The notes beneath the pieces are model-generated. The model saw nothing but the letters and a program-made list of their open reading frames with translations. It made no database searches and was not told where the DNA came from. A program made the position numbers and the translations under genes. From Candidatus Nealsonbacteria bacterium (GTDB taxonomy: Bacteria > Patescibacteriota > Minisyncoccia > Minisyncoccales > JAGMDC01), in contig DAOWLG010000038.1 in assembly GCA_030643485.1 (NCBI GenBank), positions 1-58,424 on the forward strand: 58,424 bases of DNA, in the 5' to 3' direction. This document shows, piece by piece, positions 14,577-31,457 of the stretch; position 1 is the stretch's first letter, and each line of letters opens with the position of its first letter.

Positions 14577-16202
14577 ATGTATTTGCCAGAAGACATTGAT
14601 GACATTTTAAGAAATAGAGAAGCTGAAATCTTGGAGTTCAAGGAAGCCAAGAGTAATTTTGATTCAAGGGATCGTTCTGATTATTGCGCCGCAATAGCAA
14701 ACGCAGGCGGTGGCAGATTACTGCTTGGCGTAGATAATGATAGGAATATTCTTGGCACTTCTGTATATGCTGGAGCAATAGAAAAAATTCCTCACGAAGT
14801 ATATCAAATTATTGGAGTTCGTATAATTGTTGAGGAAGTTGACCACAAGAATGGCAGAGTTGTTGTGTTTGATATACCAGCAAGACCCGTTGGGCAGCGT
14901 GTGCGTTCAAACGGACATTATAAATATCCTATTCGGATTGGCGAATCGTTAGTCGAGATGGATGACGAAACAACTCGTAATATTTTGAATGAAGTGCAAC
15001 CAGATTTTTCTGCTGGCATTATAGATGGCCTTGATTTAAGCGATTTAGATATGGCGGCTATTGATAATTTTAAAAAACAAAGAGCGGAAAAAACTGGTAA
15101 TTTAAGAATTATTTCTACTCCCACGGAACAAGTATTGCAAGATGCTGAACTCATACGCGATGGAAAAATTACATTTGCTTGTTTAGTTTTGCTGGGTAAG
15201 GCAGAAAAAATAGCAAAATTTTTACCGCAAGACGAAATTATTTATGAATGGCGAAATACGAAGGGACAAATTCATCATGATTTTAGGAAATTATGGCGAG
15301 CGCCATATTTTATTATTTATGACGAGATTTGGCAGACAATAAATGTTCGCAATCTGCGAATACCTTATCAAGAAGGATTTATACAGCAAGAAGTGTTGGC
15401 GTTTGATGAGAAATCTTGTCGTGAAGCAGTTAATAATGCTGTAGCCCATCGTGATTATTCTATTGGCGGACGATCTATTCTTATTCAATCCTCTCCAGAA
15501 AGTTTTACTGTCGTAAGTCCCGGGGGATTTTTATCGGGCATTACCGAGGACAATGTTTTGACAGCCTCTCCTCGCTGGCGCAATCGTCTTGTTGCGGAAG
15601 CACTTGAAAGGACAAATTTTGTTGAACGATCTGGACAGGGAATTGATAATATTTTTGAAGCATCAATTCGTCAAGGCAAGGGTTTGCCAAATTTCCATGG
15701 CACGACTAATGACACAGTGCAAATAAATGTTCCCGCAAAAGTTCAAGATGCGGAATTTATTAAATTTTTAGAAAAAGTGGCGAATGAAAAGCAAATCAGT
15801 TTTTCCTTTAATGAAATTTATGAATTGGAAATGCTCCGCGCGCAAAAAACTCTTGTGAGTTTAAAGCATAAAGAAAAATTTTTAAAACTCGGAATTATTG
15901 AAAAAATTGGGAAAACCAGTGGGACAAAATATATGCTTTCGCATCGCTATTATTCTTATGAAAAAAAACCAGGGATTTATACAAGAGTTAAAGGTATCAG
16001 CCGTGAGCATAAAAAATATTTAATACTTGAACATATTAAACGCGAAGGTCAGGGATGCAGGAGCGATTTTCTTGATGCATTTCCAGAGCTGAAGGCAAGA
16101 GATATATCAAATCTATTACAGGAGTTAAAAAAAGATGGAAAAATTGAGCGAATAGGTTTTGATACAACTGGTTACTGGCGGATTAAAGAAGATTCTAATT
16201 AG
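14577..16202 (+). CDS. AlbA_2/Schlafen-like plus HATPase_c_4-like plus wHTH protein (COG2865-type) inserted between mod and res
   Basis: N-terminal EAEILEFKEAKSNFD...GGRLLLGVDND, central AVNNAVAHRDYS, and a C-terminal winged-helix-like segment (ISNLLQELKKDGKIERIG). Confidence 0.75.
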   Translation: MYLPEDIDDILRNREAEILEFKEAKSNFDSRDRSDYCAAIANAGGGRLLLGVDNDRNILGTSVYAGAIEKIPHEVYQIIGVRIIVEEVDHKNGRVVVFDIPARPVGQRVRSNGHYKYPIRIGESLVEMDDETTRNILNEVQPDFSAGIIDGLDLSDLDMAAIDNFKKQRAEKTGNLRIISTPTEQVLQDAELIRDGKITFACLVLLGKAEKIAKFLPQDEIIYEWRNTKGQIHHDFRKLWRAPYFIIYDEIWQTINVRNLRIPYQEGFIQQEVLAFDEKSCREAVNNAVAHRDYSIGGRSILIQSSPESFTVVSPGGFLSGITEDNVLTASPRWRNRLVAEALERTNFVERSGQGIDNIFEASIRQGKGLPNFHGTTNDTVQINVPAKVQDAEFIKFLEKVANEKQISFSFNEIYELEMLRAQKTLVSLKHKEKFLKLGIIEKIGKTSGTKYMLSHRYYSYEKKPGIYTRVKGISREHKKYLILEHIKREGQGCRSDFLDAFPELKARDISNLLQELKKDGKIERIGFDTTGYWRIKEDSN

Positions 16203-16372
16203 TAGTAAAATGTTGTTTTTAGTAGAAGAAACAAAGAAATTACCTTAAAAATAGGGGTGTGAATAAGTTGTAAGTTCTACTAAAATATAGTTTATTTTCA
16301 GGGGGGTTGAAAATAAATAACGCGCGCGATTTTTAACTTAAAATAGACCATCTTGATAGTTTTTATTTTCAT

Positions 16373-18871
16373 ATGACCAAAAATCATAGAAAAATTAAAA
16401 AATCGAATCTTCCGCTTGTTTGCGCTTTACAACCTGCTGTCGCTGCGTGGCGAGAGGGTGGATATAAAGAGGGGACGAGCAAGACAACTCGGCGGCTTTT
16501 GGAATGGTGGTTCGTGGAAGACCACGAGGTTGCCGATGGAAAATTTTTTGCTTTTTGGCGCGCTCAAAGAGAAGCGATTGAACATTTGATTTATTGTTAT
16601 GAAGTTTTGGAAGCGCGCAGTTTATATCAGTTAGCGCAAAAGCTTGATGCGAGAGTACCCGTTGATCCAAGCGCGGATAAATGGGCAAAATACGCTTTCA
16701 AAATGGCGACAGGTTCGGGCAAAACAATGATAATGGCGATGGCAGTTGTTTGGTCGTATTTTAACGCTACCAAAGAGAAGCAAAAAGATTTCACAAAAAA
16801 TTTTATTTTAATCGCGCCAAATCTGATTGTGCTTGACCGATTAATGGGCGATTCAAAAAATCCAGAATTTTTTGAAGGCGCTATTTTCAAAAAATTTCCT
16901 TTTATTCCCCCAGAATGGTCATCGGATTTCCAGCTTGATGTTATTGGACCTAACGAAGAACGGGAAAGCACTAAATCATCAACACTCTACTTGCTCAACT
17001 GGCAAAAATTTGTTGAACGCAAAAATAGTAAGGCAGAAAATCCTGTACAGGATATTTTAGGCCAAAAGCCGCCAAGCGAGATTATTGTTTCTTTGAAAAA
17101 ACTCAAAGACAGGTTATCTCATCTTTCAAATGTGATGGTGCTAAACGACGAGGCGCATCATGTTTGGGACGAGGATCTTGTTTGGTATAAAGCTATTACG
17201 GATTTGAACGATAACTCAGGACTGATGTGTCAGTTGGACTTTTCGGCAACGCCAAAATATCAGAAAACAGGACAACTTTTTACTCACATTATCACTGATT
17301 ATAGTTTAGGAAGCGCGATTGATGACAATATCGTGAAGCGTCCGAAAATTGCTGAGATTGAAAATGCGCCAGAAATTGAAAGCAAAAAAGCATCAGAGAA
17401 ATATCGCGTCCAAATTGACGCAGGCATCAACCAGTGGAGAGTTATGCGCAAAGTGATTATCAAAACAAACAAAAAGCCAGTGCTTTTTGTAATGACGGAA
17501 GATAATGCTTCTGCTGATGATGTTGCCGAATATATGGCGACATTTCCTGAATTCAGCGGAAACAAAATTTTAACAATTCATTCAGGCAAAAAGAAAGATC
17601 AAATTGCGGCAAAAGATTTGGAAATAGCGCGCAAAGCGGCTCGTGAAATTGACTCATTGGAAAATCCGCATAACGCAATTGTTTCCGTGCTTATGCTTCA
17701 CGAGGGCTGGGATGTGCGCAATGTTGTTGTAGTTGTTCCTCTGCGTTCTTTTAGCTCAAAAGCAAAAATTTTGCCTGAGCAAACGTTGGGAAGAGGTTTG
17801 CGCCGAATGTGGCCAGAGGATAGCAAGCATAAAGAACTATTGATAGTTATTGAGCATCCGCAATTTCACGATTTGATTGACGAGGCATTAGCAGAACAGG
17901 GTGTTAAAGTTGAATTTGTCAGTTTGGAAGAAGCTTACAATCCCCCGGTAATTATTCAAACGGAAAAAAATAAACTGAAATACGATATTGAAACGCCGAT
18001 GCTCTCTGGAGGACTAACGCATTCGGTAACAGGGATTGAGAAATTACAGGCGAATGTCTTGGATAGCAAATTGTTTAAGTATGATTCTTTACAGGCGCGA
18101 GATGTAATCCTTCGCAAGATTGATATGCTGACGAAAAAAGAGGAAGCAAAAGAAGTGTTGGAGTTTCCATACGCTGATAATCCGCAGATATATATCGCGA
18201 GTATTGCTAACGCGGTTTTGCGATTTGCGAGAATTCCGGGACATTTTGATAAAGTCGCGCCACAAGTCAAAGAATATATTGCTAAATATCTTTTTGATAG
18301 AAAAGTTGATATTACCAATCTTGAAACATTGAAAAAGCTCAATCACCCTAAAGTGCGTGGCGCGACCATCTCCATTTTTGTTGATATTATTAATAATCTG
18401 ACAATTGTATCAGAAAAAGCAAAAATGGAAGAACGAAAAGCGCGAGCGTCTGAGATTAAACCGTTTCCGTGGACAAAACTTGCTGTGGCGGCGCAAAAAT
18501 CCGTTTTGAATTTTACACCAGTTGATAATGATTTTGAGGCAAAATTTGTAAAATTTCTTGACGGAGCAGATGATGTTGATGCTTTTATTAAAAATGAAAC
18601 AAGGACAATGAATCTCAAAATTCCGTATATTGCTCAAGACGGATTTTTGCGCCGCTATATTCCGGACTTTATTATTCGGACGAAAAATGGTATGGTGATT
18701 ATTGAAACAAAGGGGCGTGAAGATGTTGATGTTGTGGCAAAAGATTTGCAGGGTAAACGATGGACAGAAGAAGTTAGCAGACGCACAGGGACAAAATGGA
18801 CATTTTTACGCGTTGATCAAAAAGAATTTGAGAAAGCAAGATATAACAAACTTGCTGAATTAACAATCTAA
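16373..18871 (+). CDS. res: Type III restriction enzyme Res subunit (SF2 helicase plus PD-(D/E)xK nuclease)
   Basis: MATGSGKT (Walker A), LNDEAHH (DEAH), LHEGWDVRNV (motif VI region). C-terminal YIPDF...VIIETKG nuclease motif. Confidence 0.9.
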   Translation: MTKNHRKIKKSNLPLVCALQPAVAAWREGGYKEGTSKTTRRLLEWWFVEDHEVADGKFFAFWRAQREAIEHLIYCYEVLEARSLYQLAQKLDARVPVDPSADKWAKYAFKMATGSGKTMIMAMAVVWSYFNATKEKQKDFTKNFILIAPNLIVLDRLMGDSKNPEFFEGAIFKKFPFIPPEWSSDFQLDVIGPNEERESTKSSTLYLLNWQKFVERKNSKAENPVQDILGQKPPSEIIVSLKKLKDRLSHLSNVMVLNDEAHHVWDEDLVWYKAITDLNDNSGLMCQLDFSATPKYQKTGQLFTHIITDYSLGSAIDDNIVKRPKIAEIENAPEIESKKASEKYRVQIDAGINQWRVMRKVIIKTNKKPVLFVMTEDNASADDVAEYMATFPEFSGNKILTIHSGKKKDQIAAKDLEIARKAAREIDSLENPHNAIVSVLMLHEGWDVRNVVVVVPLRSFSSKAKILPEQTLGRGLRRMWPEDSKHKELLIVIEHPQFHDLIDEALAEQGVKVEFVSLEEAYNPPVIIQTEKNKLKYDIETPMLSGGLTHSVTGIEKLQANVLDSKLFKYDSLQARDVILRKIDMLTKKEEAKEVLEFPYADNPQIYIASIANAVLRFARIPGHFDKVAPQVKEYIAKYLFDRKVDITNLETLKKLNHPKVRGATISIFVDIINNLTIVSEKAKMEERKARASEIKPFPWTKLAVAAQKSVLNFTPVDNDFEAKFVKFLDGADDVDAFIKNETRTMNLKIPYIAQDGFLRRYIPDFIIRTKNGMVIIETKGREDVDVVAKDLQGKRWTEEVSRRTGTKWTFLRVDQKEFEKARYNKLAELTI

Positions 18872-19771: not shown

Positions 19772-20023
19772 ATGGCGATAACTAAATCAGCGAAAAAGGC
19801 ATTACGCCAAAATATAAGGCATAAAAAAAGAAACTTAATTTACAAAAATAAAATGAAAGGGCTTGTAAAACAGGTCAAATCTTTTATTAAAGAAAAGAAA
19901 ATAAAAGAGGCAAAAGAATTATTGCCTCAGGTCTATAAAATCCTGGATAAATCCGCAAAAATAGGAATAATTAAGAAAAACACTGCGTCAAGAAAAAAAT
20001 CTCGTCTGGCTAAATCTCTGTAA
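19772..20023 (+). CDS. rpsT: 30S ribosomal protein S20
   Basis: MAITKSAKKALRQNIRHKKRN..., small and basic, with typical S20 N-terminus and length. Confidence 0.9.
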   Translation: MAITKSAKKALRQNIRHKKRNLIYKNKMKGLVKQVKSFIKEKKIKEAKELLPQVYKILDKSAKIGIIKKNTASRKKSRLAKSL

Positions 20024-20987
20024 TCAACATATCTATTGCCATAATCGGGTCAACGCGCCCTGTTTTTATATCTCGGTCTACCTTGAATAATTTCTGGTAG
20101 ATTTTTTTTAGAACATCAAGCCCAAACTTTTGAGCCTGATAACAACTTTTTTGCGCAACATAAGGATGCATTCCCGGAATTTTTACTCTACCAAAGGACG
20201 AGGTTCTTTGGTTGTTCGGCTGAACTCCCTCAGAATGACTTGAAAGGTAGTCCTTAACTAAAAGCAAATTTCTAAATTGGAAATTTATCATAGAAAGAAG
20301 ATACAAGGGTGCGTCTCCTTTCTCCAAATGTTTATGAATTAAAAAAATCGCGCGTTTCTTGTCTTTTTGCGCGATAGCGTCAATGGTCTTAAAAATATCT
20401 GTTTCAATTCTTGGAGCCACTAAAAGTTCAATATCCTTTAATACTACGAGAACACTTCTCGTAGTATTAAATTTATAAGTGCATAATTTTTTGATTTCCT
20501 GAGATAATTGCCAGAGGTTATTACCCACGAAATTTATCAATTGTTGTATTGCTTGATTTTCAATTTTTGAATTATATTTTTCAAATTCTTTTTTAATCCA
20601 ATTTTCCAATTCTTTATTTGATAGAGTGTCAAACTCTTGGCATTTTGCTGTTTTTTTCAAAAACTTAAACAAAGAATCCGCTTTATTAACTTTATCTTTT
20701 TCATAAAAAAGGATAACATCTTCTGTGTTCTCTATTTTTTTTAAGACATCTAAAATTTTTTCCTTAAATTCAGAATTTAAGAAAATATTTTTTAGAACTA
20801 TTAATTTTTTTTCTTTGAACATTGAGACACTTTGAATGTTATGCTCAAATTCTTCAAAGCCTGAATTTTGGCAGTCATAATATCTTAAATTCAATCCAGT
20901 TTGATGGATTTTTTTGTAGCGCTCAATAATCTCTTGTAATTTCTTAAGAGAGCGATATGTATCTTTGCCATAGAGAAAAAGAAACAT
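20010..20987 (-). CDS. holA: DNA polymerase III delta subunit (probable)
   Basis: 325 aa. The N-terminal LFLYGKDTYR... and overall helical C-terminal pattern fit delta-subunit proteins of small genomes. No catalytic motif available to confirm. Confidence 0.65.
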   Translation of the reverse strand: MFLFLYGKDTYRSLKKLQEIIERYKKIHQTGLNLRYYDCQNSGFEEFEHNIQSVSMFKEKKLIVLKNIFLNSEFKEKILDVLKKIENTEDVILFYEKDKVNKADSLFKFLKKTAKCQEFDTLSNKELENWIKKEFEKYNSKIENQAIQQLINFVGNNLWQLSQEIKKLCTYKFNTTRSVLVVLKDIELLVAPRIETDIFKTIDAIAQKDKKRAIFLIHKHLEKGDAPLYLLSMINFQFRNLLLVKDYLSSHSEGVQPNNQRTSSFGRVKIPGMHPYVAQKSCYQAQKFGLDVLKKIYQKLFKVDRDIKTGRVDPIMAIDMLITEI

Positions 20988-20988
20988 T

Positions 20989-21354
20989 CTATTTCAAAAC
21001 TGTTTTGATTTTTTCAATTATTTCATTAGGAGTAAAATGAGCCTTAATTAGATAGTCATTTGCTCCTAAATTTATTCCTTTTTCTATGTCTTCTTTTTGG
21101 CCAAGATTAGATAAAATAATTACCGGCAATTGAGATAAACTCGGATCTTTTTTCATCTGAGATAAAACCTCAAAACCATCTATCCCCGGCAAAATAAGGT
21201 CAAGCAAAACCAAATCAGGTTTCTCTGTTTTTATTTTTTTTATTCCTTCTTCGCCGTCAATTGCCTCAAAAACCTCATAACTTTCTTTTGTAAGTTTTTG
21301 AGCAATTAACTCTCTAAGAAATTTATCGTCTTCAATGATTAATATTTTTTGCAT
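20989..21354 (-). CDS. Single-domain response regulator (REC only)
   Basis: MQKILIIEDDKF, DLVLLDLILPGIDGFEVL, PVIILSNLG, ANDYLIKA. Start set to the ATG 1 nt after the kinase stop. Confidence 0.9.
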   Translation of the reverse strand: MQKILIIEDDKFLRELIAQKLTKESYEVFEAIDGEEGIKKIKTEKPDLVLLDLILPGIDGFEVLSQMKKDPSLSQLPVIILSNLGQKEDIEKGINLGANDYLIKAHFTPNEIIEKIKTVLK

Positions 21355-21355: not shown

Positions 21356-22396
21356 TTAACAAGGCAGGGTAAAACAAAAAGTAGAACCCTTTCCTTCTTG
21401 AGATTCAAACCAAATTCGACCTTTATGCGCTTCAATTATATTTTTAGCAATAAACAAACCCAGTCCCGTTCCTTCTGTCTCCATTCTAATTATATTAGCC
21501 CCTCTAAAAAATTTAGTAAAGACACGAAATTGCTGGTCAGTAGGTATGCCTACTCCGCTGTCATACACGGAGACCTTGATTTCTTTTTTGTTTTTTCCTT
21601 TTTCCTTACATTGTAAAAAAACTATCATTTTCCCTTTTGAAGAAGTATATCTTATAGCGTTTTCAATAATATTTCTAATTGCTAATTCTATCTTTTCTTT
21701 ATCTATATTAACCTCTGGCAATTTTTTCGCTGCAATAAACTTAAAATTTATTTTTTTTCTTTTTATTTCTTCTTTATATGAACTTATTATATCTCTACAT
21801 ATTTTTTCAATGTCGTAAAAATCTTTTTTATACACATGCCTACCTTCCTCAATCTGAGTTATATTCAAAAGATCATTTATTAAGCCAATCATCCTTTCGT
21901 TGCTTCTATATGTCTTTTCTATAAATTTTTTTTGCTCTTTGGTAACTTCTCCTAAATCACCGTCTAAAAGCATTCTTAAAGTCCACTTAATAGCAGATAG
22001 AGGAGTAGGCAACTGATGAGCAGTGATAGAAACAAATTCTGTTTTCATCTGTTCTATTCTTTTTTCTCTGGTTATGTCGCGTAAAATTACCAAAGTTCCT
22101 ATCTTCTTTTTTTGTTCAAATAAAGGAACCGCGGAAACCTCCAAAACCAAATTTTCAGCAACAGTCAGTTCTTGCATTGGCGCGCTTTTTATTTTTTTTC
22201 CTAAAATTTTAATTAATCTTTTAAGATTTCCAAAGCCCGCAAGTTCTAAAACTGGCTTACCTATTATCTCCTTTTCATTAACTCTTAAAAACTCTTGTGC
22301 GCGAGGGTTTATTAAAGAAAGATTCCTTTGTTTATCAAAAACCAAAATTCCATCAGTAAGATTTGCGATAATAGGTAATGTTTTCCTTTTTATCAT
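21356..22396 (-). CDS. Cytoplasmic PAS-domain sensor histidine kinase
   Basis: H box [16 protein letters not shown] box [10 protein letters not shown] boxes YDSGVGIP and [16 protein letters not shown]. The start overlaps the upstream stop in an ATGA arrangement. Confidence 0.9.
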
Positions 22397-23082
22397 ATAT
22401 CTATATCCAGATTCCTCTGCGAGACACTGGTTTGAATTTTTATTCCCGCGTCTCCTGATGTTCCACCTGCTTTTTCTATGTCTAAAAAGATAGTCACTTT
22501 TGGCTGGTCATTGTCGCCTACCCCATCACCGGAGATATCTATTTCAAAAGCGTTTATTTCAAGATTAGATGAAGTCAAAGGGGTTTCTTGCCCGCTTATT
22601 TTTTTCATTAAACACTTATCTGTTGTATTCCAATAAAATTCTTGACACTCATTATGGTAATTTATAAATTTTATACCTCTTCCGCCTTTAGTCAATTGAT
22701 AGTTATAGTCGCAACCTTTATCTATATTATCTAAACATGGATCTTCTATTAAACAATTTTGCTCTTTTTGAGCCATGCGCAGACTCCGAGACATATACTC
22801 CATTACATAACTAGCTTGGTCTAAAACCTCTTGAGTGTTTAAGATTTTTGACTGGCTCTTTATCATAAAATTAAAAACACCCAAAATTCCTGCTATGGCT
22901 ATGGAAAAAATCATTACGGAAATCAAAAGTTCCACAAGGGTAAATCCGCTTACTGTCAATTTGTCCCGCTTTTTTCTCCGTCTTCTTGTTAATACCCTTC
23001 TTCCTCCTTTTGTTTTTGTCCGCGCCAAAAACCCGTGTGTCCTTTTCCTTTTTCTTTTTTTGGGCTGATAAGTAATAGACAT
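22393..23082 (-). CDS. rpmH: In-frame fusion of ribosomal protein L34 (residues 1-45) with a GspJ/PilW-like pseudopilin (from G46|F47)
   Basis: [45 protein letters not shown] is full-length L34. It is followed without a stop by [20 protein letters not shown], the prepilin cleavage/methylation motif with E+5. Confidence 0.8.
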
Positions 23083-23151
23083 ATTTATTTAGTGAACTTG
23101 GTAAATTTCCTATCAAATACTGTGGAAAGTCTCAACAATAAAACCTCTTCA

Positions 23152-23266
23152 AAATTTTCAATTTTCAATGACCAATTTTCAATGAATTTTCAATGATTCA
23201 ATTTTCAATGAATAAAATTAATTAATTTGTTTGAAAATTGAAAATTGATAATTGATAATTGATTTT
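23152..23266. repeat. AT-rich palindromic element, copy 2 (inverted orientation)
   Basis: Its reverse complement matches copies 1 and 3 over the centre and right arm (CAAACAAATTAATTAATTTTATTCATTGAAAATTGAATCATTGAAAATTCATTGAAAATTGGTCATTGAAAATTGAAAAT). Confidence 0.85.
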
Positions 23267-23345
23267 AGTATCTTTATATTACCATAATTCAAGAAAAAAT
23301 ACAATTGCCTGTATAAGAATATTAATGAAAGATGTTCTGCACAAG

Positions 23346-23365
23346 TTTTCCACATCTTATCAACA
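23346..23365. promoter_or_regulatory. Two DnaA-box-like 9-mers upstream of dnaA
   Basis: TTTTCCACA (23346-23354) and TTATCAACA (23357-23365). Each has one mismatch to TTATCCACA. Confidence 0.5.
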
Positions 23366-23387
23366 AAACAAAATATTTGTATTTATT

Positions 23388-23415
23388 TTGCGTTTTATTT
23401 TGAAAGTGATATAAT
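23388..23415 (+). promoter_or_regulatory. dnaA promoter (extended -10)
   Basis: TTGCGT (23388-23393), 16-nt spacer, TGA-TATAAT (-10 at 23410-23415), 12 nt before the ATG. Confidence 0.45.
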
Positions 23416-23427
23416 AGAAAATGAAAT

Positions 23428-24780
23428 ATGACAAAAGAAGAATTATGGCAGGCAGTGCTTGCTCAAATTCAATTTAATATCTCCTCGGCAAATTTTGCTA
23501 CCTGGTTCAAAAACACTAAAATCTTAGTCAAAAAAGGGAAACAAATTATTATCTCTGTTCCTAACAATTTTTCTAAAGAATGGCTGGAAAATAAATACAA
23601 TAAAATTATCCTGAAAATTTTACGGGAGATGGACCAAGAGATAAAAGAAATCACATACGAAGTTTCCAAAACAGCGACAAAAACAAAAGAGCAAATTATG
23701 TCGCGCAACGGCTATCAAGATGACGGACAATTAGAATTCCCTGAATTTAAGGTTAATAAAATCACTAACCTTAACCCCCGCTATGCTTTTGAAAATTTCG
23801 TGGTTGGGGCTTACAACGAAGTCCCTCATGCGGCTATTTCCGCGGTTGTGAAAAACCCTGGTAAAATTTATAATCCGCTTTTTATTTATGGCGGAGTAGG
23901 ATTGGGAAAGACCCACTTAATCCAAGCCGCTGGCAATAAAATAGCTGAATCTTTTCCTAAAAAGAAAATCAGATATATTCCATCGGAAAAATTTATCTCC
24001 GGGGTGGTTAATTCTATTAGAAATCATAGTATTAGTAGTTTAAAATCAGACTATAAAAAAATTGATGTTTTAATTATGGACGATGTTCAATTTTTAGCAA
24101 GTAAAGAAAAAACTCAAGAAGAATTTTTCCATATCTTTAACACTTTATATGAAAAAAACAAACAGATAATTATTTCTTCAGACAGACCCCCAAGGGCGAT
24201 TTCTCCAATCGCAGAGCGGTTAAGGTCGCGGTTTGAAGGAGGGATGATAGCTGATATTGGCTTACCTGATATTGAAACAAGGATGGCAATCTTAAAAGTC
24301 AAATCACAGGAAAGAGGGGTGAATCTACCTGAAGAAACATCGGAATATATTGCTACTAATATCCAGAAAAATGTCCGCGAATTAGAAGGAGCAGTAAATC
24401 GTATCGCTGTTTATCAAAAATTAGATAACCAAAATTTTGACACTAACGCGATTAAATCAATACTTAAAAATATAATCACAAACCCTCAAAAACCGGTAAG
24501 TGTTAAAAAAATAATTCAAACCGTGGCAGAGTTTTACGATATAAAAGAAAAAGAAATTTTTGCTATTAGCCGAAGAAAAGAGATTGTAAAGCCCCGACAA
24601 ATTGCTATGTATCTTTTAAGAAATATATTAAGTTGTTCTTTCCCTTATATCGGAAGAAAATTTCAAGGAAAAGACCATACTACCACTATTTATGCTTTTG
24701 GGAAAATTTCTAAAGAACTGGAAAATAATGAGATATTAAATGAAGAAATAAATTTAATAAAACAAAGATTATGTAGTTAA
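23428..24780 (+). CDS. dnaA: Chromosomal replication initiator DnaA
   Basis: GGVGLGKTHL (Walker A), VLIMDDVQF (Walker B). C-terminal DNA-binding domain IAMYLLR...GRKFQGKDHTTTIYA. Confidence 0.97.
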   Translation: MTKEELWQAVLAQIQFNISSANFATWFKNTKILVKKGKQIIISVPNNFSKEWLENKYNKIILKILREMDQEIKEITYEVSKTATKTKEQIMSRNGYQDDGQLEFPEFKVNKITNLNPRYAFENFVVGAYNEVPHAAISAVVKNPGKIYNPLFIYGGVGLGKTHLIQAAGNKIAESFPKKKIRYIPSEKFISGVVNSIRNHSISSLKSDYKKIDVLIMDDVQFLASKEKTQEEFFHIFNTLYEKNKQIIISSDRPPRAISPIAERLRSRFEGGMIADIGLPDIETRMAILKVKSQERGVNLPEETSEYIATNIQKNVRELEGAVNRIAVYQKLDNQNFDTNAIKSILKNIITNPQKPVSVKKIIQTVAEFYDIKEKEIFAISRRKEIVKPRQIAMYLLRNILSCSFPYIGRKFQGKDHTTTIYAFGKISKELENNEILNEEINLIKQRLCS

Positions 24781-24797
24781 TAATAGATAGTAAATTC

Positions 24798-24874
24798 AGT
24801 GGATAATAAGTGGAAAAAATATAAAAATAAAAATCAAAGAAATAATTAGATATTTATCAACAATATTTTCCACA
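24798..24874. promoter_or_regulatory. DnaA-box cluster in the dnaA-dnaN spacer (oriC candidate)
   Basis: Reverse-strand TTATCCACT (24798-24806) and TTTTCCACT (24809-24817). Forward TTATCAACA (24854-24862) and TTTTCCACA (24866-24874). Very AT-rich surroundings. Confidence 0.5.
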
Positions 24875-24931
24875 TCTTATTATATCTTAATTTAATAATA
24901 AGACACAGGAAAAATTGTTTGCTTAATAATA

Positions 24932-26056
24932 ATGAAAATAATAATATTAAAAGATAATATTAAGAAAGGTTTAGAAATCATAGAAAAAATAACAGGAAAA
25001 AATTTAACCCTTCCTGTATTAAATAATGTTTTAATTTCAACAGAGAAAAATCTTTTAAGGTTATCTGGTACTGATTTAGAAATAGGAGTAAAATATTGGA
25101 CGCTATGTAAGACAGAAAAAGAAGGAGAAATAATAATTCCGGCTAAATTTGCGTCTAATTTTATTAATTCGTTACCACAAGAAAAAATATATTTGGAAGT
25201 AAAAAATAAAATTTTACATATTGAATGTAAAAATTATAAAGCAAAAATTAAAACCGAATCTACTCAGGATTTTCCTATAATTCCTAAAATAGAAACAGAG
25301 GATTTTATAAGTGTAAATAATTACCCTTTTTGTCAAGGACTTGAGCAGGTAGTAGAATTTACTACGCCAAATCAGGCAAGGCTGGAACTTTCAGGTGTAT
25401 ATTTTAATTTCCAAAAAAATAAATTAAAATTAGTTGCCACAGATAGTTTTCGCTTGGCTGAAAAAACACTTTATTTTGAAAAAGAATTAGATAAAGAATA
25501 TTCTTTTATTATTCCTCAAAGAACAGTTCAAATGATAATTAATATTTTCTCAGAAAAAGAAGGAAAAATAAGAATTTATCCCTCATCTAATCAGGTTCAA
25601 TTTGAGACATTTTTCCCGGAAATTTCCCATCCCGAAGTTCAGGTTATTTCCCGTTTAATTGAAGGCGAATACCCGAATTATCAGGAAATTATTCCTGAAA
25701 ACTATGAAACCCAAGTTTTATTATCAAAGGATAAATTTTTGAATCAAATTAAAACCGCTTCCCTTTTTAGTGAGAAAAGTAATGAAGTAAAAATAAAAGT
25801 TGTTCCTAAAGAACAAAAAATAGAAATTTTTTCTCAAAGTCCGGAATTAGGCGAAAATTATTCTGATTTAGAAGGAAAAATAACCGGAAAAGAAGTGAGT
25901 GTATCTTTTAATTGGAAATATCTATTAGAAGGGCTTTCTCGCTTGAAAAGTTCTGAAATAATAATTGGGTTAAACGGAGAAGAAGGTCCTGTAGTATTAA
26001 AGCCAAAAGGTGATGATACATATTTCTATATTGTAATGCCAATTAAGGGAAATTAA
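24932..26056 (+). CDS. dnaN: DNA polymerase III beta sliding clamp
   Basis: 374 aa directly after dnaA. Contains LSGTDLEIG, VATDSFRLAEK, a C-terminal MPIK, and three-domain length. Confidence 0.95.
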   Translation: MKIIILKDNIKKGLEIIEKITGKNLTLPVLNNVLISTEKNLLRLSGTDLEIGVKYWTLCKTEKEGEIIIPAKFASNFINSLPQEKIYLEVKNKILHIECKNYKAKIKTESTQDFPIIPKIETEDFISVNNYPFCQGLEQVVEFTTPNQARLELSGVYFNFQKNKLKLVATDSFRLAEKTLYFEKELDKEYSFIIPQRTVQMIINIFSEKEGKIRIYPSSNQVQFETFFPEISHPEVQVISRLIEGEYPNYQEIIPENYETQVLLSKDKFLNQIKTASLFSEKSNEVKIKVVPKEQKIEIFSQSPELGENYSDLEGKITGKEVSVSFNWKYLLEGLSRLKSSEIIIGLNGEEGPVVLKPKGDDTYFYIVMPIKGN

Positions 26057-27975
26057 AAATTAATTTTCAACAGCGCTTTTGACATAAATTCCTTCCAGAT
26101 TGGGCCCGCGATCATTACTGATGGTTTTTTCTTCATTGGATAATTATTATTATTTCCTGCCCAAACACCGCAAACAAGAGAAGGAGTATAACCTACTGCC
26201 CAAGCGTCTTTATATTCCTGAGTAGTGCCGGTTTTCGCGGCAACCTTATATCCTTTTATATGCAGAGACGAATTAAACCCAAACATAGGCGCTCTGGCTT
26301 CATTATCTGATAATATGTCATTCAAAAGTTGTGTTTCTTTTATCCCTAATACCCTTTTGGGTGTTTTTTTATTTTCTTCAATAATATTCCCTTGATTATC
26401 GGTGATTTTAAGAATACTTACAGGAGGAACCTTTAAGCCCTGTGCGGCGAAAACGCCGTAAGCCGAGGTAATATCCAATAATTTTACTTCCCAGCCACCT
26501 AATACAATAGAAGGTCCATAAGGCGGTGATAAGGTAGTAATACCTAAATTTTTTGCTGTTTGTGCGCTATCTTCTAAACCGGCTAAATATAATAAAACCT
26601 TTACAGAAGCAACATTTATTGATTGAGCCAAGGCACTTCTTAAAGAAATAGGTCCTCTAAATAGCCCGTCGTAATTTTTAGGGGTATACTCTTTATTCCC
26701 CCAGACCCCAAAATTTGTTTCTTCATCCACGACTATTGTTTTATCGTTATATCCTTTCTTAAAAGCGGTTACATAAGCAAATGGTTTGAACGCGGAACCC
26801 GGCTGTCTGCCAATCCCGTAGATTGCCACATTAACTTTTGGTTCAAATAAACAATTTTTTCCGTTCGTGCATCCTTTTGGAAACGACTCGCCAAAATAAT
26901 CCTTGGACCCGACCATTGCCAATATCTCGCCGGTTTTTGGTTGGATAGCCACTAACGACGCATTATACGCTTTATATTTTATATTTGTTTCAGAACCTTT
27001 TTCAACTGCTTCTTTTGCTATTTGCTGGAGTTCCCAATCCAAAGAAGTCCAAACCTTTAACCCTTTTTCTTTTAAGAAATTCTCGCCGTATTTTGTTTCT
27101 AAATATTGTTTAACGTAAAGAGTAAAATGAGGCGCTTTTATTTCCACTAAATTCGGGGCAAAAATGATTTCCTGTTGTTTTAATTCTTCTGCCTGTTCTT
27201 TTGATATGTATCTCTGTTTTGCCATTCTGTTTAGAATATTATTTTTGTGGCTTATTAGTTTCTCTTTGTGCTTACCATAAGGAGAAAGATAACTCGGCGC
27301 CTGGATTAGAGAAGCCAGTATAGCCGCTTCTGGCAGGGAAATTTCTGAAACAGATTTCTTAAAATAGGTTTGGGTTGCGGCTTCCACCCCATAAGCGTTA
27401 CTGCCAAACGGGACTTGATTCACATACCATTCCAAGATTTGGTCTTTTGAATATCTTCTTTCCAATTCTATTGTTAAAATAATTTCCCTTATTTTTCTCT
27501 CAATGGTTTTTTTTCTGGTTAAGAAAGTTGACCTGATAAGTTGTTGAGTGATAGTGGACCCGCCCTGTTTTGGTTTTCTTAATTTCAAGTCAACCATTAT
27601 AGCGCGCATTGTCCCCTTAAAATCAATTCCAGGATGTTTGTAAAAATTTTTATCTTCCGCAACAATGATTGCCTGCTTCAGATGTTCCGGAACCGCGCTT
27701 AAAGGAATCAAGGTTCTTTTTTCTTCCCCGTATATTTTATACAAAAGAACCTCACCGGTTCTGTCATAAATTTTTGTTGATTGGGTAAATTGTTTTTCAG
27801 TGAATTTTTCTGGCCGTGGTAGGTCTTTGGCGTAATAGATAAACAAACCAAGGATAATAAACCCAAGCAATAAAATACACATTCCCGTGATTTTCCAAAA
27901 CCCCTTTACTAACCCAATCCCTGCACGCAGGAGCGGGGCGGTAAGGGGTTGTCTATAAAGTTTTCTGCGAGCCAT
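26053..27975 (-). CDS. Bifunctional penicillin-binding protein 1A (GT51 transglycosylase plus transpeptidase)
   Basis: EDKNFYKHPGID, GGSTITQQL, RKIREI (GT51). GSAFKPF (SxxK) and KTGTT (transpeptidase). N-terminal TM anchor. Confidence 0.93.
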   Translation of the reverse strand: MARRKLYRQPLTAPLLRAGIGLVKGFWKITGMCILLLGFIILGLFIYYAKDLPRPEKFTEKQFTQSTKIYDRTGEVLLYKIYGEEKRTLIPLSAVPEHLKQAIIVAEDKNFYKHPGIDFKGTMRAIMVDLKLRKPKQGGSTITQQLIRSTFLTRKKTIERKIREIILTIELERRYSKDQILEWYVNQVPFGSNAYGVEAATQTYFKKSVSEISLPEAAILASLIQAPSYLSPYGKHKEKLISHKNNILNRMAKQRYISKEQAEELKQQEIIFAPNLVEIKAPHFTLYVKQYLETKYGENFLKEKGLKVWTSLDWELQQIAKEAVEKGSETNIKYKAYNASLVAIQPKTGEILAMVGSKDYFGESFPKGCTNGKNCLFEPKVNVAIYGIGRQPGSAFKPFAYVTAFKKGYNDKTIVVDEETNFGVWGNKEYTPKNYDGLFRGPISLRSALAQSINVASVKVLLYLAGLEDSAQTAKNLGITTLSPPYGPSIVLGGWEVKLLDITSAYGVFAAQGLKVPPVSILKITDNQGNIIEENKKTPKRVLGIKETQLLNDILSDNEARAPMFGFNSSLHIKGYKVAAKTGTTQEYKDAWAVGYTPSLVCGVWAGNNNNYPMKKKPSVMIAGPIWKEFMSKALLKINF

Positions 27976-28022
27976 AAATCAATTATAGGTTATCAACGAT
28001 AACTTATCAATGATTAGTAATC

Positions 28023-28046
28023 AAAAACCCCCGTTCGGGGGTTTTT
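28023..28046. terminator. Bidirectional hairpin terminator
   Basis: AAAAA-CCCCC-GTTC-GGGGG-TTTTT. Confidence 0.65.
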
Positions 28047-28055
28047 GAGGTGAGT

Positions 28056-28208
28056 CTACAGTCCTGGAGTTTCTGATGGTGCCGCGGCTGGGGTTTCTTC
28101 TTCGTTATTTTCTTCTTCTTTATTCTCTTCTTCTTTAACTTCTCCTCCATCACCTTCGTTATCTCCTATGTCGTTGACAATAGGACTAATAATTTTTTCG
28201 TAAATCAT
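28056..28208 (-). CDS. Candidate 50-aa highly acidic small protein
   Basis: ATG at 28208, TAG at 28056-28058. Product MIYEKIISPIVNDIGDNEGDGGEVKEEENKEEENNEEETPAAAPSETPGL. A terminator follows directly. Below the ORF-track cut-off. Confidence 0.35.
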   Translation of the reverse strand: MIYEKIISPIVNDIGDNEGDGGEVKEEENKEEENNEEETPAAAPSETPGL

Positions 28209-28261
28209 AATTTTTAATTTTTTTACATCTATTCAATTGTTTTCGACCTTTTCCCACACCT

Positions 28262-28342
28262 ATTGTGGATATGCGAATTTGTGAAACAAATTCGCCTTGT
28301 CGCCTTTGGCGACTAATCCACAATAGGTGTGGGATTTCCGTC
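28262..28342. repeat. CCCACACCTA three-way-junction element, copy B
   Basis: P1 CCCACACCTATTGTGGAT/ATCCACAATAGGTGTGGG. P2 GCGAATTTGT-GAA-ACAAATTCGC. P3 GTCGCC-TTT-GGCGAC. Confidence 0.85.
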
Positions 28343-28394
28343 CGATACAATCCCTATTATATTTTTCCAAACAGATTTGTCAACCCCATTGGCA

Positions 28395-28423
28395 CCTAAT
28401 TTTGGTTTTAGACCAAAATTAGG
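28395..28423. repeat. 12-bp-arm palindrome
   Basis: CCTAATTTTGGT-TTTAG-ACCAAAATTAGG. Confidence 0.8.
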
Positions 28424-28451
28424 AATTTCTAATTTCTAATTTCTAATTTCT
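28424..28451. repeat. Tandem heptamer AATTTCT x4
   Basis: AATTTCTAATTTCTAATTTCTAATTTCT. Confidence 0.85.
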
Positions 28452-28480
28452 ATTAAATTTTTAATTCTTTAATTTCTAAA

Positions 28481-28531
28481 CATTGAAAATTGAATCATTG
28501 AAAATTTAATGAAAATTGAAAATTGAAAATT
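28481..28531. repeat. Partial copy (right arm only) of the AT-rich GAAAATTGAAAAT element
   Basis: CATTGAAAATTGAATCATTGAAAATTTAATGAAAATTGAAAATTGAAAATT. Confidence 0.75.
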
Positions 28532-28570: not shown

Positions 28571-28574
28571 GAAG

Positions 28575-29470: not shown

Positions 29471-30319
29471 ATGGATTTATTTTTTTATTTTTTTATATTT
29501 TTATTTGGATTGTGTATTGGCAGTTTTTTGAATTGCGTAATTTATTTGCTTGAAAGTAAAGAGAGACCTGTTCGCGGCCAAACGCGGCGAACAGGCATCC
29601 TGGGACGTTCCTTTTGCCCTAATTGCGGCCATATTTTATCCTGGAAAGATTTAATTCCTGTCTTAAGTTTTTTAATTTTGAAAGCAAAGTGCCGCTATTG
29701 CCAGAAACCTATTTCTTTACAATATCCAATAGTAGAAATAGCAACAGGGTTGCTGTTTCTACTAATTTTCAATTTTCAATTTTCAATTTTCAATCAATTT
29801 TCAATTTTCAATTTTCAAAGCATCATAGCCTTCTTTTTTCTGCTATTGATTACTTGTTTCCTGATAATTATCTTTGTTTATGATTTCAAACATTATATTA
29901 TTCCCGACAAGGTGATTTATCCTGCAATAGTTATCACCTTTTTTTATCATCTAACCAGCCATTGGGATTTGGGACTTGGCTGGCCATTAGTTATTGGGAT
30001 TTGGGACTTCATATCGCCTGCGCTTCTCGCTTCAGGATTTTTTTTGTCTATTGTCCTTATCTCACGCGGAAAATGGATGGGCTTGGGCGATGTAGGGCTT
30101 GCTTTTTTAATGGGTCTTTTACTTGGATTTCCTAATATCTTAGTAGCACTCTTCCTTGCGTTCTCAATTGGTGCTATAATAGGAACAGGGCTGATAATTA
30201 AACACAAGAAGACCCTGAAAAGCGAAGTGCCGTTTGGGCCATTTTTAGTAATCGGCACGTTTATTGCAATGTTCTGGGGAGAAAAAATTGTAAATTGGTA
30301 TCTAAATTTTGCCATATAA
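29471..30319 (+). CDS. pilD: Prepilin peptidase (A24 family, PilD-like)
   Basis: CPNCGH...CRYCQ cysteine pairs, LQYPIVEIATGLLF, multiple TM segments, WMGLGDVGL and VPFGPFLV catalytic-Asp contexts. Confidence 0.9.
   Translation: MDLFFYFFIFLFGLCIGSFLNCVIYLLESKERPVRGQTRRTGILGRSFCPNCGHILSWKDLIPVLSFLILKAKCRYCQKPISLQYPIVEIATGLLFLLIFNFQFSIFNQFSIFNFQSIIAFFFLLLITCFLIIIFVYDFKHYIIPDKVIYPAIVITFFYHLTSHWDLGLGWPLVIGIWDFISPALLASGFFLSIVLISRGKWMGLGDVGLAFLMGLLLGFPNILVALFLAFSIGAIIGTGLIIKHKKTLKSEVPFGPFLVIGTFIAMFWGEKIVNWYLNFAI
29567..29595. repeat. Palindrome inside the pilD coding sequence
   Basis: CCTGTTCGC (29567-29575) ... GCGAACAGG (29587-29595), encoding RPVRGQTRRTG. The arm sequence is related to the GACCCGTTCTCG palindrome in and after tatD. 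Confidence 0.75.
29765..29818. repeat. ATTTTCAA octamer tandem tract inside the pilD coding sequence
   Basis: 54 nt of (ATTTTCAA)n, in frame, encoding IFNFQFSIFNQFSIFNFQ. Same sequence family as the intergenic GAAAATTGAAAAT elements. Confidence 0.85.
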
Positions 30320-30879: not shown

Positions 30880-31434
30880 ATGAAAATTAAAAAAATAAAA
30901 AAATCTAATAATATCGGTTTTACCTTACTTGAAGTGATGATTGCTATTTTTTTTCTCACTGTTGGTATAGGGGGTGCTTTTACGGTTATTCAAAGGACAG
31001 TTGGCTTGTCTTATATTAACGCTTCGCGATTAGTTGCTGCAAATTTGGCGCAGGAAGGGATTGAAATCGTGAGAAATATCAGGGATACTAATTGGATAGA
31101 GGGAGAGGATTGGGACAAAGGAATTGGTATTCAATATACAGGTACTCCATTAGATTCAGTATATTATGAAGTGCAATACAATGATAAAGAAGCGGACATA
31201 GTCGTTTGCGTAACGCCTTGCGACTATAACGATATGAGATTTTTGAATATTGACGAAGATAGTTTTTATAGTTACAAGGATTCAGGAATATATACCACAA
31301 CAAAATTCAAGAGAAAAATCGCTATTTCAGATAAAGATAGCGACAAATTAAAAGTAACAGTAATAGTAGAATGGCAAGAGCGTGGAACAACTCATAATTT
31401 TACGGCTCAAGAATATTTGTATAATTGGAAATGA
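30880..31434 (+). CDS. Minor pilin/pseudopilin (PilV/GspI-like)
   Basis: ...SNNIG|FTLLEVMIAIFFLTVGIGG prepilin motif. Confidence 0.8.
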   Translation: MKIKKIKKSNNIGFTLLEVMIAIFFLTVGIGGAFTVIQRTVGLSYINASRLVAANLAQEGIEIVRNIRDTNWIEGEDWDKGIGIQYTGTPLDSVYYEVQYNDKEADIVVCVTPCDYNDMRFLNIDEDSFYSYKDSGIYTTTKFKRKIAISDKDSDKLKVTVIVEWQERGTTHNFTAQEYLYNWK

Positions 31435-31457
31435 GCAAAAAGGAATGTGTTATCTAA
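31431..31457 (+). other. Orphan 8-codon ORF (MSKKECVI) that looks like a severed prepilin leader
   Basis: The ATG overlaps the preceding TGA (ATGA coupling). MSKK is a typical prepilin leader, but the reading frame then runs into the rnpA start region and stops. Confidence 0.5.

Follow-up and report, generated by a model that had tools for sequence, protein, structure and literature searches.

Class III prepilins are processed by PilD, a prepilin peptidase of the A24 aspartyl protease family, and are characterized by glycine, phenylalanine and glutamate at positions -1, +1 and +5 of the cleavage site, by a hydrophobic alpha-1 helix of about 20 residues and by a lollipop fold. The prepilin leader is cytoplasmic and variable in length, and the peptidase has its active site facing the cytoplasm (PMC10191384). 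Ribosomal protein bL34 is encoded by rpmH, at the head of the gene series rpmH-rnpA-yidD-yidC-jag. In eukaryotes, the ribosomal proteins of Ub-eL40 and Ub-eS31 are made only as fusions, and a specific endoprotease must detach them before they can be assembled into ribosomes. In Firmicutes, a short N-terminal propeptide is removed from bL27 by Prp, a dedicated cytosolic cysteine protease. In modular type IV pilins, such as PilB of Streptococcus sanguinis, modules are grafted C-terminally onto the pilin and displayed on the pilus.

The gene described here, an in-frame fusion of rpmH to the minor pilin gene pil3, was found in a contig of Candidatus Nealsonbacteria (the whole stretch of 58,424 nt analysed is called the window below), within the Patescibacteria, which are ultra-small bacteria. 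Its product resembles class III prepilins in the cleavage site, the helix and the fold, in a basic leader predicted to be cytoplasmic, and in having a bifunctional PilD and sibling minor pilins encoded nearby; it differs from them since the leader is a complete, selectively maintained ribosomal segment of 46 residues rather than a short disposable peptide, and the gene lies outside the pilin operon, driven from the rpmH position beside dnaA. A full-length model match, the position divergent from dnaA and normal conservation are shared with bL34, whereas the stop codon is missing, 183 extra residues follow at the C-terminus, and rnpA-yidD-yidC-jag are detached, behind pil2. As in the ubiquitin fusions, the ribosomal protein would have to be freed from its partner, although domain order, partner and protease class (cytosolic deubiquitinases) are different there, and no membrane step is involved. 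As with bL27 and Prp, a bacterial ribosomal protein would need proteolytic maturation, but here the ribosomal protein itself would be the released 'propeptide' of another protein. Like the modular pilins, the fusion combines a pilin scaffold with a foreign module, which however lies on the N-terminal side of the cleavage site and would remain cytoplasmic.

The fusion is confirmed as a real, continuous reading frame. The initial annotation had reported an in-frame L34-pseudopilin ORF of 229 codons without a stop, and both ORF reading and domain matches bear this out (Table 1). Pfam model Ribosomal_L34 (PF00468) matches residues 3-44 over profile positions 3-44 of 44, with 64.2 bits against a cutoff of 25, and TIGR01030 (rpmH_bact) scores 57.1 against 37.65. 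The prepilin site is readable directly from the sequence, with Gly-1, Phe+1, Glu+5 (residue 51) and a hydrophobic stretch of about 20 residues, and is recognized above cutoff by N_methyl (PF07963, residues 45-67, 24.4 bits against 21.2) and by TIGR02532 (21.1 against 16.3), as originally proposed. PilD is predicted to cut between Gly46 (22945-22947) and Phe47 (22942-22944). The presence of a complete L34 was correctly annotated, while its end had to be moved: because L34 of Patescibacteria is 44 aa long and ends in KLTV followed by the stop, L34 proper corresponds to residues 1-44, with Gly-1 at residue 46 and Phe+1 at residue 47. Ser45-Gly46 are most simply explained as what remains of the old pilin leader, its two final residues. 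An unfused homologue (P0007) has a leader ending in NSG/FTLVE, the slash marking the cleavage site, and a natural pseudopilin leader, MKKLTVSG/FTLIELL (L090), shares its last six residues, KLTVSG, with the fusion. The product thus departs from a free bL34, a protein of about 44-50 aa with its own stop, followed by rnpA, in that no stop follows codon 44 and 183 residues are C-terminal to L34-Ser-Gly; it equally departs from an ordinary prepilin, whose leader is short, hydrophilic and functionless, its own leader being 46 residues of conserved L34.

Table 1. Features of the fusion locus and of its surroundings; coordinates refer to the window.
Feature	Position	Strand	Evidence
holA	20010-20987	-	Pfam
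Response regulator	20989-21354	-	Pfam
Histidine kinase, ATGA-overlapped with the fusion	21356-22396	-	Pfam
rpmH::pil3 fusion ORF	22393..23082	-	229 aa + stop, no internal stop
Mature pseudopilin pil3, residues 47-229	22396..22944	-	Unfused homologues, AF2 model, invariant residues
Ser45-Gly46, -2/-1 residues of the class III signal peptide	22945..22950	-	Read from sequence
bL34 moiety, codons 1-44 (MSITYQPK...RDKLTV)	22951..23082	-	Pfam and TIGRFAM above cutoff, whole profile
dnaA and dnaN, divergent from the fusion	23428..26056	+	Pfam; synteny in 80 relatives
PilD prepilin peptidase/N-methyltransferase	29471..30319	+	A24_N_bact 101 bits, Peptidase_A24 51 bits
pil1 minor pilin	30323-30871	+	N_methyl; BLASTP 37% identity to L004 operon gene
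pil2 minor pilin	30880-31434	+	N_methyl; BLASTP 51% identity to L004 operon gene
Reciprocal inversion junction, pil2 stop / rnpA start	31431..31446	+	Comparison with L097, L054
rnpA	31447-31782	+	Pfam
yidD	31754-31960	+	Pfam
yidC	32076-32840	+	Pfam
jag/KhpB	32758-33294	+	Pfam

The body of the pilin is homologous over its full length to a family of minor pilins of Patescibacteria, unnamed, which provide the third pilin of the series pilD-pil1-pil2-pil3-pil4 and are here called pil3. A total of 442 homologues was found, all unfused except one from a sister lineage (P0002, see below), and 109 unfused members were aligned, showing 39-54% identity to the window protein. Nine residues are invariant in the family, and all of them are found in the fusion (R102, C116, F139, C146, Q193, P194, Q217, S221, R223). 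The AF2 model (pLDDT 84.5) is a lollipop with a helix at residues 49-102 and a beta-sheet head of eight strands, residues 1-46 being modeled with low confidence. The initial description of the body as GspJ/PilW-like did not hold: GspJ (17.2 against a cutoff of 64.85), PilV (20.3 against 52.2) and ComGE (29.8 against 49) score far below their equivalog cutoffs, with matches limited to the N-terminal 60 residues or so, in the region of the helix, and a GspJ/PilW-like identity is not established. Assignment of the head to a structural class was given up, as Foldseek comparison to PDB gave no match with E<0.01 (best E=0.04; best pilin, PilB, E=0.057) and profile search against PDB matched the alpha-1 helix only. 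A further pilin, carrying a Laminin_G_3 module, is encoded elsewhere in the window, at 56764-57609.

An independent Logan assembly from the same organism (L091) contains the fusion with the same nucleotide sequence, and a search for the same fusion in relatives was successful, revealing it in a sister lineage, in two variants (P0002 and P0271) present in four contigs from four samples. There, the junction RDKLTVSG/FTLVELL recurs unchanged, including Gly-1, Phe+1 and Glu+5, while the pilin body has diverged and acquired indels, whole-protein identity to the window fusion being 68-71%; the recurrence of an identical junction next to a diverged body is more than expected by chance. The fusion has therefore been retained in at least two diverged lineages. 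The sister lineage has the same order, kinase-response regulator-holA, downstream of the fusion, with a FIST gene in addition: after the fusion comes a gap of 254 nt, followed by the FIST gene and a kinase that is longer. The coupling by ATGA that the initial annotation pointed out between fusion and kinase is thus a true overlap of 4 nt, specific to the window lineage rather than a general feature of the fusion.

The origin of the fusion, overlooked by the initial annotation together with the reciprocal pil2/rnpA junction at 31431-31447, emerges from the gene order of relatives. The rpmH locus was compared in 80 relatives, those among the matches listed, a set that excludes the window's own genome. 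All 80 loci contain one L34 gene each, free and with its own stop; 13 were read out, of which 11 code for 44 aa, and the overall range is 42-46 aa. Among the same listed matches, dnaA is directly upstream of rpmH in 73 of the 80, rnpA and/or yidC(-jag) follow in 75, and a pilin gene in none; rnpA is the next gene in the listed loci wherever it was detected, mostly after a spacer of 2-15 nt. With its start at 23082 (-), against 23428 (+) for dnaA, the fusion has the canonical divergent position of rpmH, while rnpA is located 8.4 kb away. In three unfused relatives (L004, L097 and L098) the pilin genes are arranged as pilD-pil1-pil2-pil3-pil4-ligA. In the window, rpmH is joined to pil3, and pilD-pil1-pil2 are joined directly to rnpA-yidD-yidC-jag. 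The same arrangement, pilD-pil1-pil2-rnpA-yidD-yidC-jag, is found in a sister-lineage contig (L093), which probably comes from the same organism as L001, given their common sample and similar divergence.

Since both canonical operons reappear when a single inversion is undone, the fusion junction and the pil2/rnpA junction are a reciprocal pair, produced by an ancestral inversion of about 8.5 kb spanning dnaA (22951-31446), and it is because of this inversion that rnpA, and not pil3, directly follows pil2 in both the window and the sister-lineage contig. The inverted segment contains rpmH, the dnaA-side origin region, dnaA, dnaN, a PBP gene, pilA, pilD, pil1 and pil2. One breakpoint was at most a few nucleotides away from the stop codon of rpmH, and the other interrupted the stretch of pil3 that codes for its short leader, leaving rpmH codons 1-44 in frame with Ser-Gly/Phe-Thr-Leu-Val-Glu of pil3 and, reciprocally, pil2 next to rnpA. 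Both junctions are common to the sister lineage. By gene order, pil1 and pil2 are the former upstream neighbours of pil3, and rnpA-yidD-yidC-jag the former downstream partners of rpmH. At the reciprocal junction, the short sequence ATGAGCAAAAA, which begins MSK and overlaps the TGA of pil2 as ATGA, may be the orphaned 5' end of pil3, and GGAAT may derive from the old rnpA spacer; both suggestions are tentative, and draw on L097, where pil2 and pil3 overlap by the same ATGA, and on GGAGT-ATG-TTATC before rnpA in L054. The exact order expected before the inversion (dnaN...pilD-pil1-pil2-pil3-FIST-HK), sought through pil2 homologues, was not found in unfused relatives: in L094 and L095 pil2 is followed by a methyltransferase and T4SS pilins instead of pil3, and in L017 the dnaN-side context differs. 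GC skew was discarded as an origin locator, since at the scale of the window it follows the gene strand and is uninformative.

Comparison of the two lineages indicates that purifying selection is acting on both halves of the gene. In the L34 part, 10 synonymous differences are found against one amino-acid change, corresponding to a dN/dS of 0.067, to be compared with 0.07 for dnaA, 0.07 for yidC and 0.09 for the response regulator; in the leader region, 44 of the 45 compared residues are identical at a dS of about 0.43. The pil3 body has a dN/dS of 0.25, close to those of pil1 (0.30) and pil2 (0.24), and, given also its invariant residues, is not a pseudogene. Set against the closest free L34s of related lineages, likewise 44 aa long, the fused L34 shows about 80% identity along its 44 residues (75-82%), and nothing points to acceleration. 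The constraint on the L34 part lends indirect support to its incorporation into the 50S subunit. The initial proposal that L34 stands in place of the prepilin leader is thus supported, by the shared junction and by the constraint on both halves, which also disfavours the suggestion that either L34 or the pseudopilin is non-functional.

A working model may be proposed, to which we give moderate confidence, in which the fusion is inserted N-in, cut by PilD after Gly46, and separated into an L34 of natural length and a pseudopilin left in the membrane. The hydrophobic alpha-1 helix of the pilin would target the protein to the membrane via SRP/Sec, and the very basic segment of 46 residues would be kept in the cytoplasm by the positive-inside rule, like a normal leader. 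PilD, whose active site faces the cytoplasm, would then release L34-Ser-Gly for 50S assembly, its 46 aa falling within the natural range of L34 lengths, and N-methylate Phe47, the mature pseudopilin entering the type IV pilus machinery alongside pil1 and pil2. The annotated prepilin peptidase is confirmed by Pfam matches (Table 1); it is encoded 6.4 kb from the fusion, and its four cysteines and the catalytic pair Asp138 and Asp207 are invariant in the alignment; it also carries a basic insertion of 9 residues. Ribosome structures provide 48 distinct L34 chains, and in these the conserved core is followed by about 7 residues at most, the long extensions being all N-terminal; L34 must probably be cut free by the pilus-processing protease. 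If PilD does free L34, the leader peptide would be a functional ribosomal protein, and PilD its obligatory maturation protease. The stronger statement, that this clade produces L34 solely as the leader of a minor pilin, each molecule passing through co-translational membrane targeting and PilD cleavage, has in our judgement an even chance of being correct. Synthesis of an abundant ribosomal protein and of a minor pilin in a 1:1 ratio is an odd stoichiometry, which speaks against the model.

Other readings of the locus were evaluated. The L34 segment might be a long basic leader and nothing else, discarded after cleavage, ribosomal L34 being supplied by a second rpmH or dispensed with altogether. 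No second L34-like sequence is found in the window, whose 58 kb are the part of the genome covered by the search; certain bacteria can do without L34, the rpmH deletion of B. subtilis being viable, so that failed release need not be lethal, and some Patescibacteria are without individual ribosomal proteins. A mere leader, however, should not preserve its residues to the extent seen between the two lineages, nor evolve under the same constraint as dnaA and yidC, nor match free L34s so closely; furthermore, the fused copy occupies the canonical rpmH site, each of the 80 listed loci has a single L34, and to our knowledge rpmH paralogues are not a known phenomenon. This explanation is considered unlikely. 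About equally unlikely is that PilD does not cut, either because L34 works while tethered, or because another protease frees it, or because the pilin is a tolerated dead cargo. We know of no processed leader as long as this one, of 46 extremely basic residues, and pil4, which follows pil3 in relatives, was not found in the window and could hint at decay of the pilin set. Against this stand the cleavage site, identical in both lineages, the complete set of invariant residues and pil1- and pil2-like constraint of the pilin body, the lack of long C-terminal extensions of L34 in solved ribosomes, and the integrity of PilD, pil1 and pil2 in both lineages.

The pseudopilin could also, or mainly, be translated from an internal TTG, the codon of Leu42, so that the locus would in effect contain two overlapping genes. 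This TTG is found at -5 from the cleavage site in both lineages, and the resulting leader, M-T-V-S-G/F, would have a normal length of 5 residues; yet it would be devoid of positive charge, no convincing Shine-Dalgarno sequence is found at proper spacing (GGAG is 16 nt and GGGA 4 nt upstream), and the TTG is accounted for by the conserved Leu of L34 in KLTV. Internal initiation is very improbable, and would leave L34 still without a stop codon, so the problem of its release would persist. An artefact of assembly, consensus or gene calling, with a missed stop or a chimeric join, might be feared in a metagenome-assembled genome, and dispersed repeats are found near the locus; the identical sequence in an independent assembly, the same junction in four further contigs of a diverged lineage and the conserved reciprocal junction effectively refute it, reducing its probability almost to nil. 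The assembly error anticipated by the initial annotation is thereby dismissed. Other candidates were rejected on inspection. A programmed -1 frameshift at A_AAA_AAG (22969-22975, within the L34 codons), where the -1 frame is open for about 40 codons, gives no plausible product because the conserved L34 C-terminus would be lost; motifs for 2A-like skipping or an intein are absent; within the ORF no terminator-like site is found, and promoter-like matches are at chance level.

No L34-prepilin fusion was found outside the window lineage and its sister. An exhaustive phmmer search with residues 1-75 against 1.84 billion cluster representatives, behind which fused members may hide when the representative is unfused, returned only plain L34s and junk read-throughs, and a degenerate junction pattern matched three ordinary pseudopilins, and no fusion, in JGI metagenomes. 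A word-indexed search with the same residues gave only free L34s and, as the fusion protein itself (P0001) was also missed, is uninformative on absence. No literature linking L34 with prepilins or pilin fusions was found.

If the proposed maturation is correct, the fusion would be the first case of a prepilin leader that has its own function, and the first of a ribosomal protein in bacteria that a membrane aspartyl protease matures from a polyprotein, with a hard-wired 1:1 coupling between the synthesis of ribosomes and of a pilus component. Processing would imply that prepilin peptidases can accept a highly charged, RNA-binding leader of 46 residues, that a leader peptide regarded as 'discarded' can serve as an essential protein of the cytoplasm, and that a viable polyprotein can arise when an inversion spanning the origin breaks within a cleavable signal peptide, a clean natural example of pre-existing proteolysis buffering an otherwise lethal gene fusion. 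The fusion is also a simple, testable substrate for the recognition rules of PilD. Were L34 not released, the clade would represent a natural case of L34 deficiency or of tethered L34, which would be informative as well. The lifestyle of this episymbiotic lineage is believed to revolve around type IV pili, and the arrangement suggests that its ribosome biogenesis may depend on the pilus-processing machinery.

The region 22393-23082 of the minus strand is a single uninterrupted ORF of 229 codons, in which the ribosomal protein bL34 (product of rpmH) is joined without a stop to a pilin, as proposed in the initial annotation, and both domain models exceed their cutoffs. The whole Pfam Ribosomal_L34 profile is covered by residues 3-44 (64.2 bits, cutoff 25), and TIGR01030 (rpmH) scores 57.1 bits against a cutoff of 37.65. 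The prepilin N-terminal methylation motif spans residues 45-67 (PF07963, 24.4 vs 21.2; TIGR02532, 21.1 vs 16.3) and has the canonical cleavage-site residues first noted there, Gly -1 (residue 46), Phe +1 and Glu +5. The L34 is complete but shorter than the 45 residues originally assigned: since free L34s of related Patescibacteria are 44 aa long and end in ...KLTV-stop, L34 proper corresponds to residues 1-44. The simplest view of Ser45-Gly46 is that they are the final two residues of the old pilin leader, as the unfused homologue P0007 reads ...NSG/FTLVE. The former label 'GspJ/PilW-like' is not supported: models of these families match only the shared N-terminal helix, far under their cutoffs, and a more fitting name for the body is third minor pilin (pil3) of the Patescibacteria pilD cluster. 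In the AF2 model (mean pLDDT 84.5) residues 1-46 are unstructured (pLDDT 53-66) and precede a helix of 54 residues and a beta-sheet head predicted with confidence; neither fold nor profile searches returned a significant match of the head domain to a solved relative.

An assembly or consensus error at the junction, envisaged in the initial annotation, was not found. The same nucleotide sequence is present in the independent Logan assembly L091 (run SRR13892592), and the fusion recurs, as had been suggested for checking, in a diverged sister lineage. There, P0002 (216 aa, 68% identical) has equal architecture and exactly the same junction, its gene being identical on contigs from three samples (L001-L003); a third variant from a further sample (L092), P0271, is four nucleotides away from P0002. 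The P0002 locus is orthologous to that of the window, as judged from the upstream dnaA (91% identical) and the downstream FIST, histidine kinase, response regulator and holA genes. It is therefore extremely improbable that the fusion is an artefact. An exhaustive phmmer search with residues 1-75 as query, covering 1.84 billion representatives, revealed no further L34-prepilin fusion, nor did a scan of JGI metagenomes for a degenerate junction pattern, although fusions may sit beneath unfused cluster representatives and one of the sequence searches missed even the window's own protein. Longer L34 proteins in the phmmer output were read-through or duplicated junk. On present evidence the fusion is restricted to a single small clade, in which three sequence variants represent two species-level lineages.

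Its origin was reconstructed from relatives. All 80 loci listed from species-representative genomes (nearly all Patescibacteria, with a few Chloroflexota, Syntrophomonadaceae and TM6) contain a free L34 gene; dnaA lies immediately upstream of rpmH in 73, with dnaN mostly beyond, rnpA and/or yidC(-jag) follow in 75, and a pilin gene follows in none. The gene order (pilB/T)-pilC-pilA-pilD-pil1-pil2-pil3-pil4-ligA, in which pil3 is a homologue of the fused body, is found in three independent unfused relatives. In the window, rnpA (Pfam, 98.7 bits) begins 12 nt past the pil2 stop, followed by yidD, yidC and jag/KhpB; therefore rpmH holds the former downstream neighbour of pil2, and pil2 those of rpmH. 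Flipping 22951-31446 back recreates both canonical operons together, with all genes still pointing away from the dnaA region, and the fusion is the product of one inversion of this segment. The inversion is older than the lineage split, since the same reciprocal junction, pilD-pil1-pil2-rnpA-yidC-jag, is found in the sister lineage (L093, from the sample of L001). One breakpoint hit a very narrow target, as the gap between rpmH stop and rnpA start in relatives is mostly 2-15 nt; the other lies within the ~20 nt that encode the leader of pil3. A possible orphaned pil3 start, ATGAGCAAAAA (Met-Ser-Lys-...), is seen at the window's reciprocal junction, where it shares an ATGA with the TGA of pil2 just as pil3 does in the unfused relative L097; the following GGAAT-GTG resembles the rnpA spacer and start, GGAGT-ATG, of the relative L054. 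Both likenesses are no more than suggestive, and in the sister lineage this detail is no longer present.

The fusion stop overlaps the start of the PAS histidine kinase gene as ATGA, in line with the reported coupling. Compared with the sister kinase (L001 1931-4445), the window kinase is devoid of the first ~91 residues, and the FIST-domain gene preceding the former is absent; the coupling results from this lineage-specific deletion. A 106-nt inverted repeat (arms 97% complementary, units ATTTTCAAT/ATTGAAAAT) has its arms immediately before the fusion gene and immediately before yidC, with a partial copy upstream of pilA, every copy being oriented toward its downstream gene. Recombination between the arms would flip dnaA...yidD, leaving the fusion untouched. 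The repeat is a recent dispersed element, MITE-like or promoter-bearing, because L001 has no copy upstream of the fusion. GC-rich palindromic repeats with CCCACACC...GGTGTGGG (repeat pairs D4, I5, I21) flank pilA and look like a dispersed palindromic element; a similar hairpin separates dnaA from the fusion gene in the sister lineage (L001 671-730).

Features of the window, with position, strand and remarks
Feature	Position	Strand	Remarks
SAM (S-box) riboswitch	1418-1530	+	57.3 bits vs gathering score 44.4
tRNA genes (four)	7962-8033, 8038-8109, 11442-11513, 12032-12104
Candidate defence genes	4194-5498 (-), 12724-14568 (+), 14577-18871 (+), 36343-37704 (-), 45896-47206 (+)		two AAA_14/DUF4143 ATPases, two N6/N4 DNA methylases, Schlafen/AlbA_2 protein, ResIII/SWI2-SNF2 helicase
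Histidine kinase	21356-22396
106-nt inverted repeat	23151-23256, 31988-32093
Partial repeat copy	28423-28544
GC-rich palindromic repeats	28244-28809, 29400-29435
pilA	28848-29288		ahead of pilD, pil1, pil2
PilD	29471-30319		bifunctional prepilin peptidase, both domains present
Type IV secretion-like cluster	33275-44700	-	directly after jag
Two large proteins	33275-34591, 34789-36339	-	T4SS_pilin domains
NosD/beta-helix protein	38771-41869	-	1032 aa, T4SS_pilin domain
VirB4/TraG-like ATPase	42835-44700	-
Modular type IV pilin	56764-57609	-	N-terminal methylation motif, then Laminin_G_3/concanavalin-like lectin domain

The secretion-like cluster fits the reported placement of Patescibacteria T4SS near dnaA/rpmH/rnpA (PMC12102498). 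The modular pilin is a candidate adhesin, and the candidate defence genes point to restriction-modification or defence islands.

Nei-Gojobori counts between the window and the sister lineage gave dN/dS of 0.067 for the L34 part (first 45 codons; dN 0.029, dS 0.43, one amino-acid change vs 10 synonymous differences), close to dnaA and yidC (both 0.07) and the response regulator (0.09). Values were about 0.13 for the pilin helix and 0.25 for the pil3 body, with 0.30 for pil1 and 0.24 for pil2. The pil3 body keeps 9/9 residues invariant across 111 family members, and the fused L34, compared over all 44 residues, shares about 80% (75-82%) identity with the nearest free L34s, from Paceibacterota, Nealsonbacteria and Portnoybacteria. 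The fused L34 shows no acceleration, and both halves are under purifying selection. The dnaA-like constraint, together with the position at the canonical rpmH locus, makes it rather unlikely that L34 is nothing but a leader and the genome has a further rpmH elsewhere; neither a second L34-like sequence nor a second pil3 is found within the 58-kb window.

SRP recognizes class III signal peptides and Sec inserts them; their leader, variable in length, is kept cytoplasmic by the positive-inside rule, and the prepilin peptidase, needing no other protein, cuts on the cytoplasmic side after the Gly or Ala that ends it (PMC10191384). In the fusion, the L34 segment would leave the ribosome first, the alpha-1 helix would then direct the nascent chain to the membrane, and the basic 46-residue segment would stay cytoplasmic. 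Cleavage by PilD after Gly46 would set L34-Ser-Gly free, while the N-methyl-Phe47 pseudopilin would be kept in the membrane. The peptidase noted in the initial annotation is a bifunctional one, and aligning it with four relatives shows its four Cys and two Asp (138, 207) to be invariant. In both fusion-bearing lineages PilD has a 9-residue basic insertion (RPVRGQTRR/EPVRRQRRR; residues 32-40 in the window, 29564-29590) in the first cytoplasmic loop, just ahead of the first CxxC, missing from the three unfused outgroups aligned; it could have arisen to accommodate the long basic leader or be a coincidence.

KLTVSG, the six residues ahead of the predicted cut, also ends the natural short leader of an ordinary pseudopilin, MKKLTVSG/FTLIELL, on metagenome contig L090. 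L34 chains in solved ribosomes are 44-53 aa long, a range that includes a 46-aa L34 ending in ...LTVSG, and several continue ...LTVS-x. Among 48 distinct L34 sequences in the PDB, none extends more than ~7 residues past the core, all long extensions being N-terminal, so an uncleaved 183-residue C-terminal membrane domain is unlikely to be ribosome-compatible. This absence, and the conservation of cleavage site and pilin body, render it unlikely that PilD does not cleave, with L34 tethered, another protease acting or the pilin dead. A separate start of the pilin, as MTVSG/F, from the internal TTG (Leu42) is possible as an extra but quite improbable as the explanation, as the codon has no good Shine-Dalgarno and L34 would still not be freed. 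A dnaX-type slippery heptamer, A_AAA_AAG (22969-22975, minus strand), lies in frame at L34 codons Arg36-Lys37-Lys38 and is kept in the sister lineage; it is probably a mere result of Lys codons, since the -1 frame yields no sensible product.

The L34-prepilin fusion is real and conserved, with a mechanistically explained origin, and was unreported in full-text literature searches. It is a new combination of known parts, the nearest concepts being eukaryotic ubiquitin-ribosomal protein fusions and the Prp-dependent maturation of bL27. Expression, cleavage and ribosomal incorporation of L34 are inferred, with good support for the key functional step; most likely, a ribosomal protein serves here as the pseudopilin's functional leader peptide.
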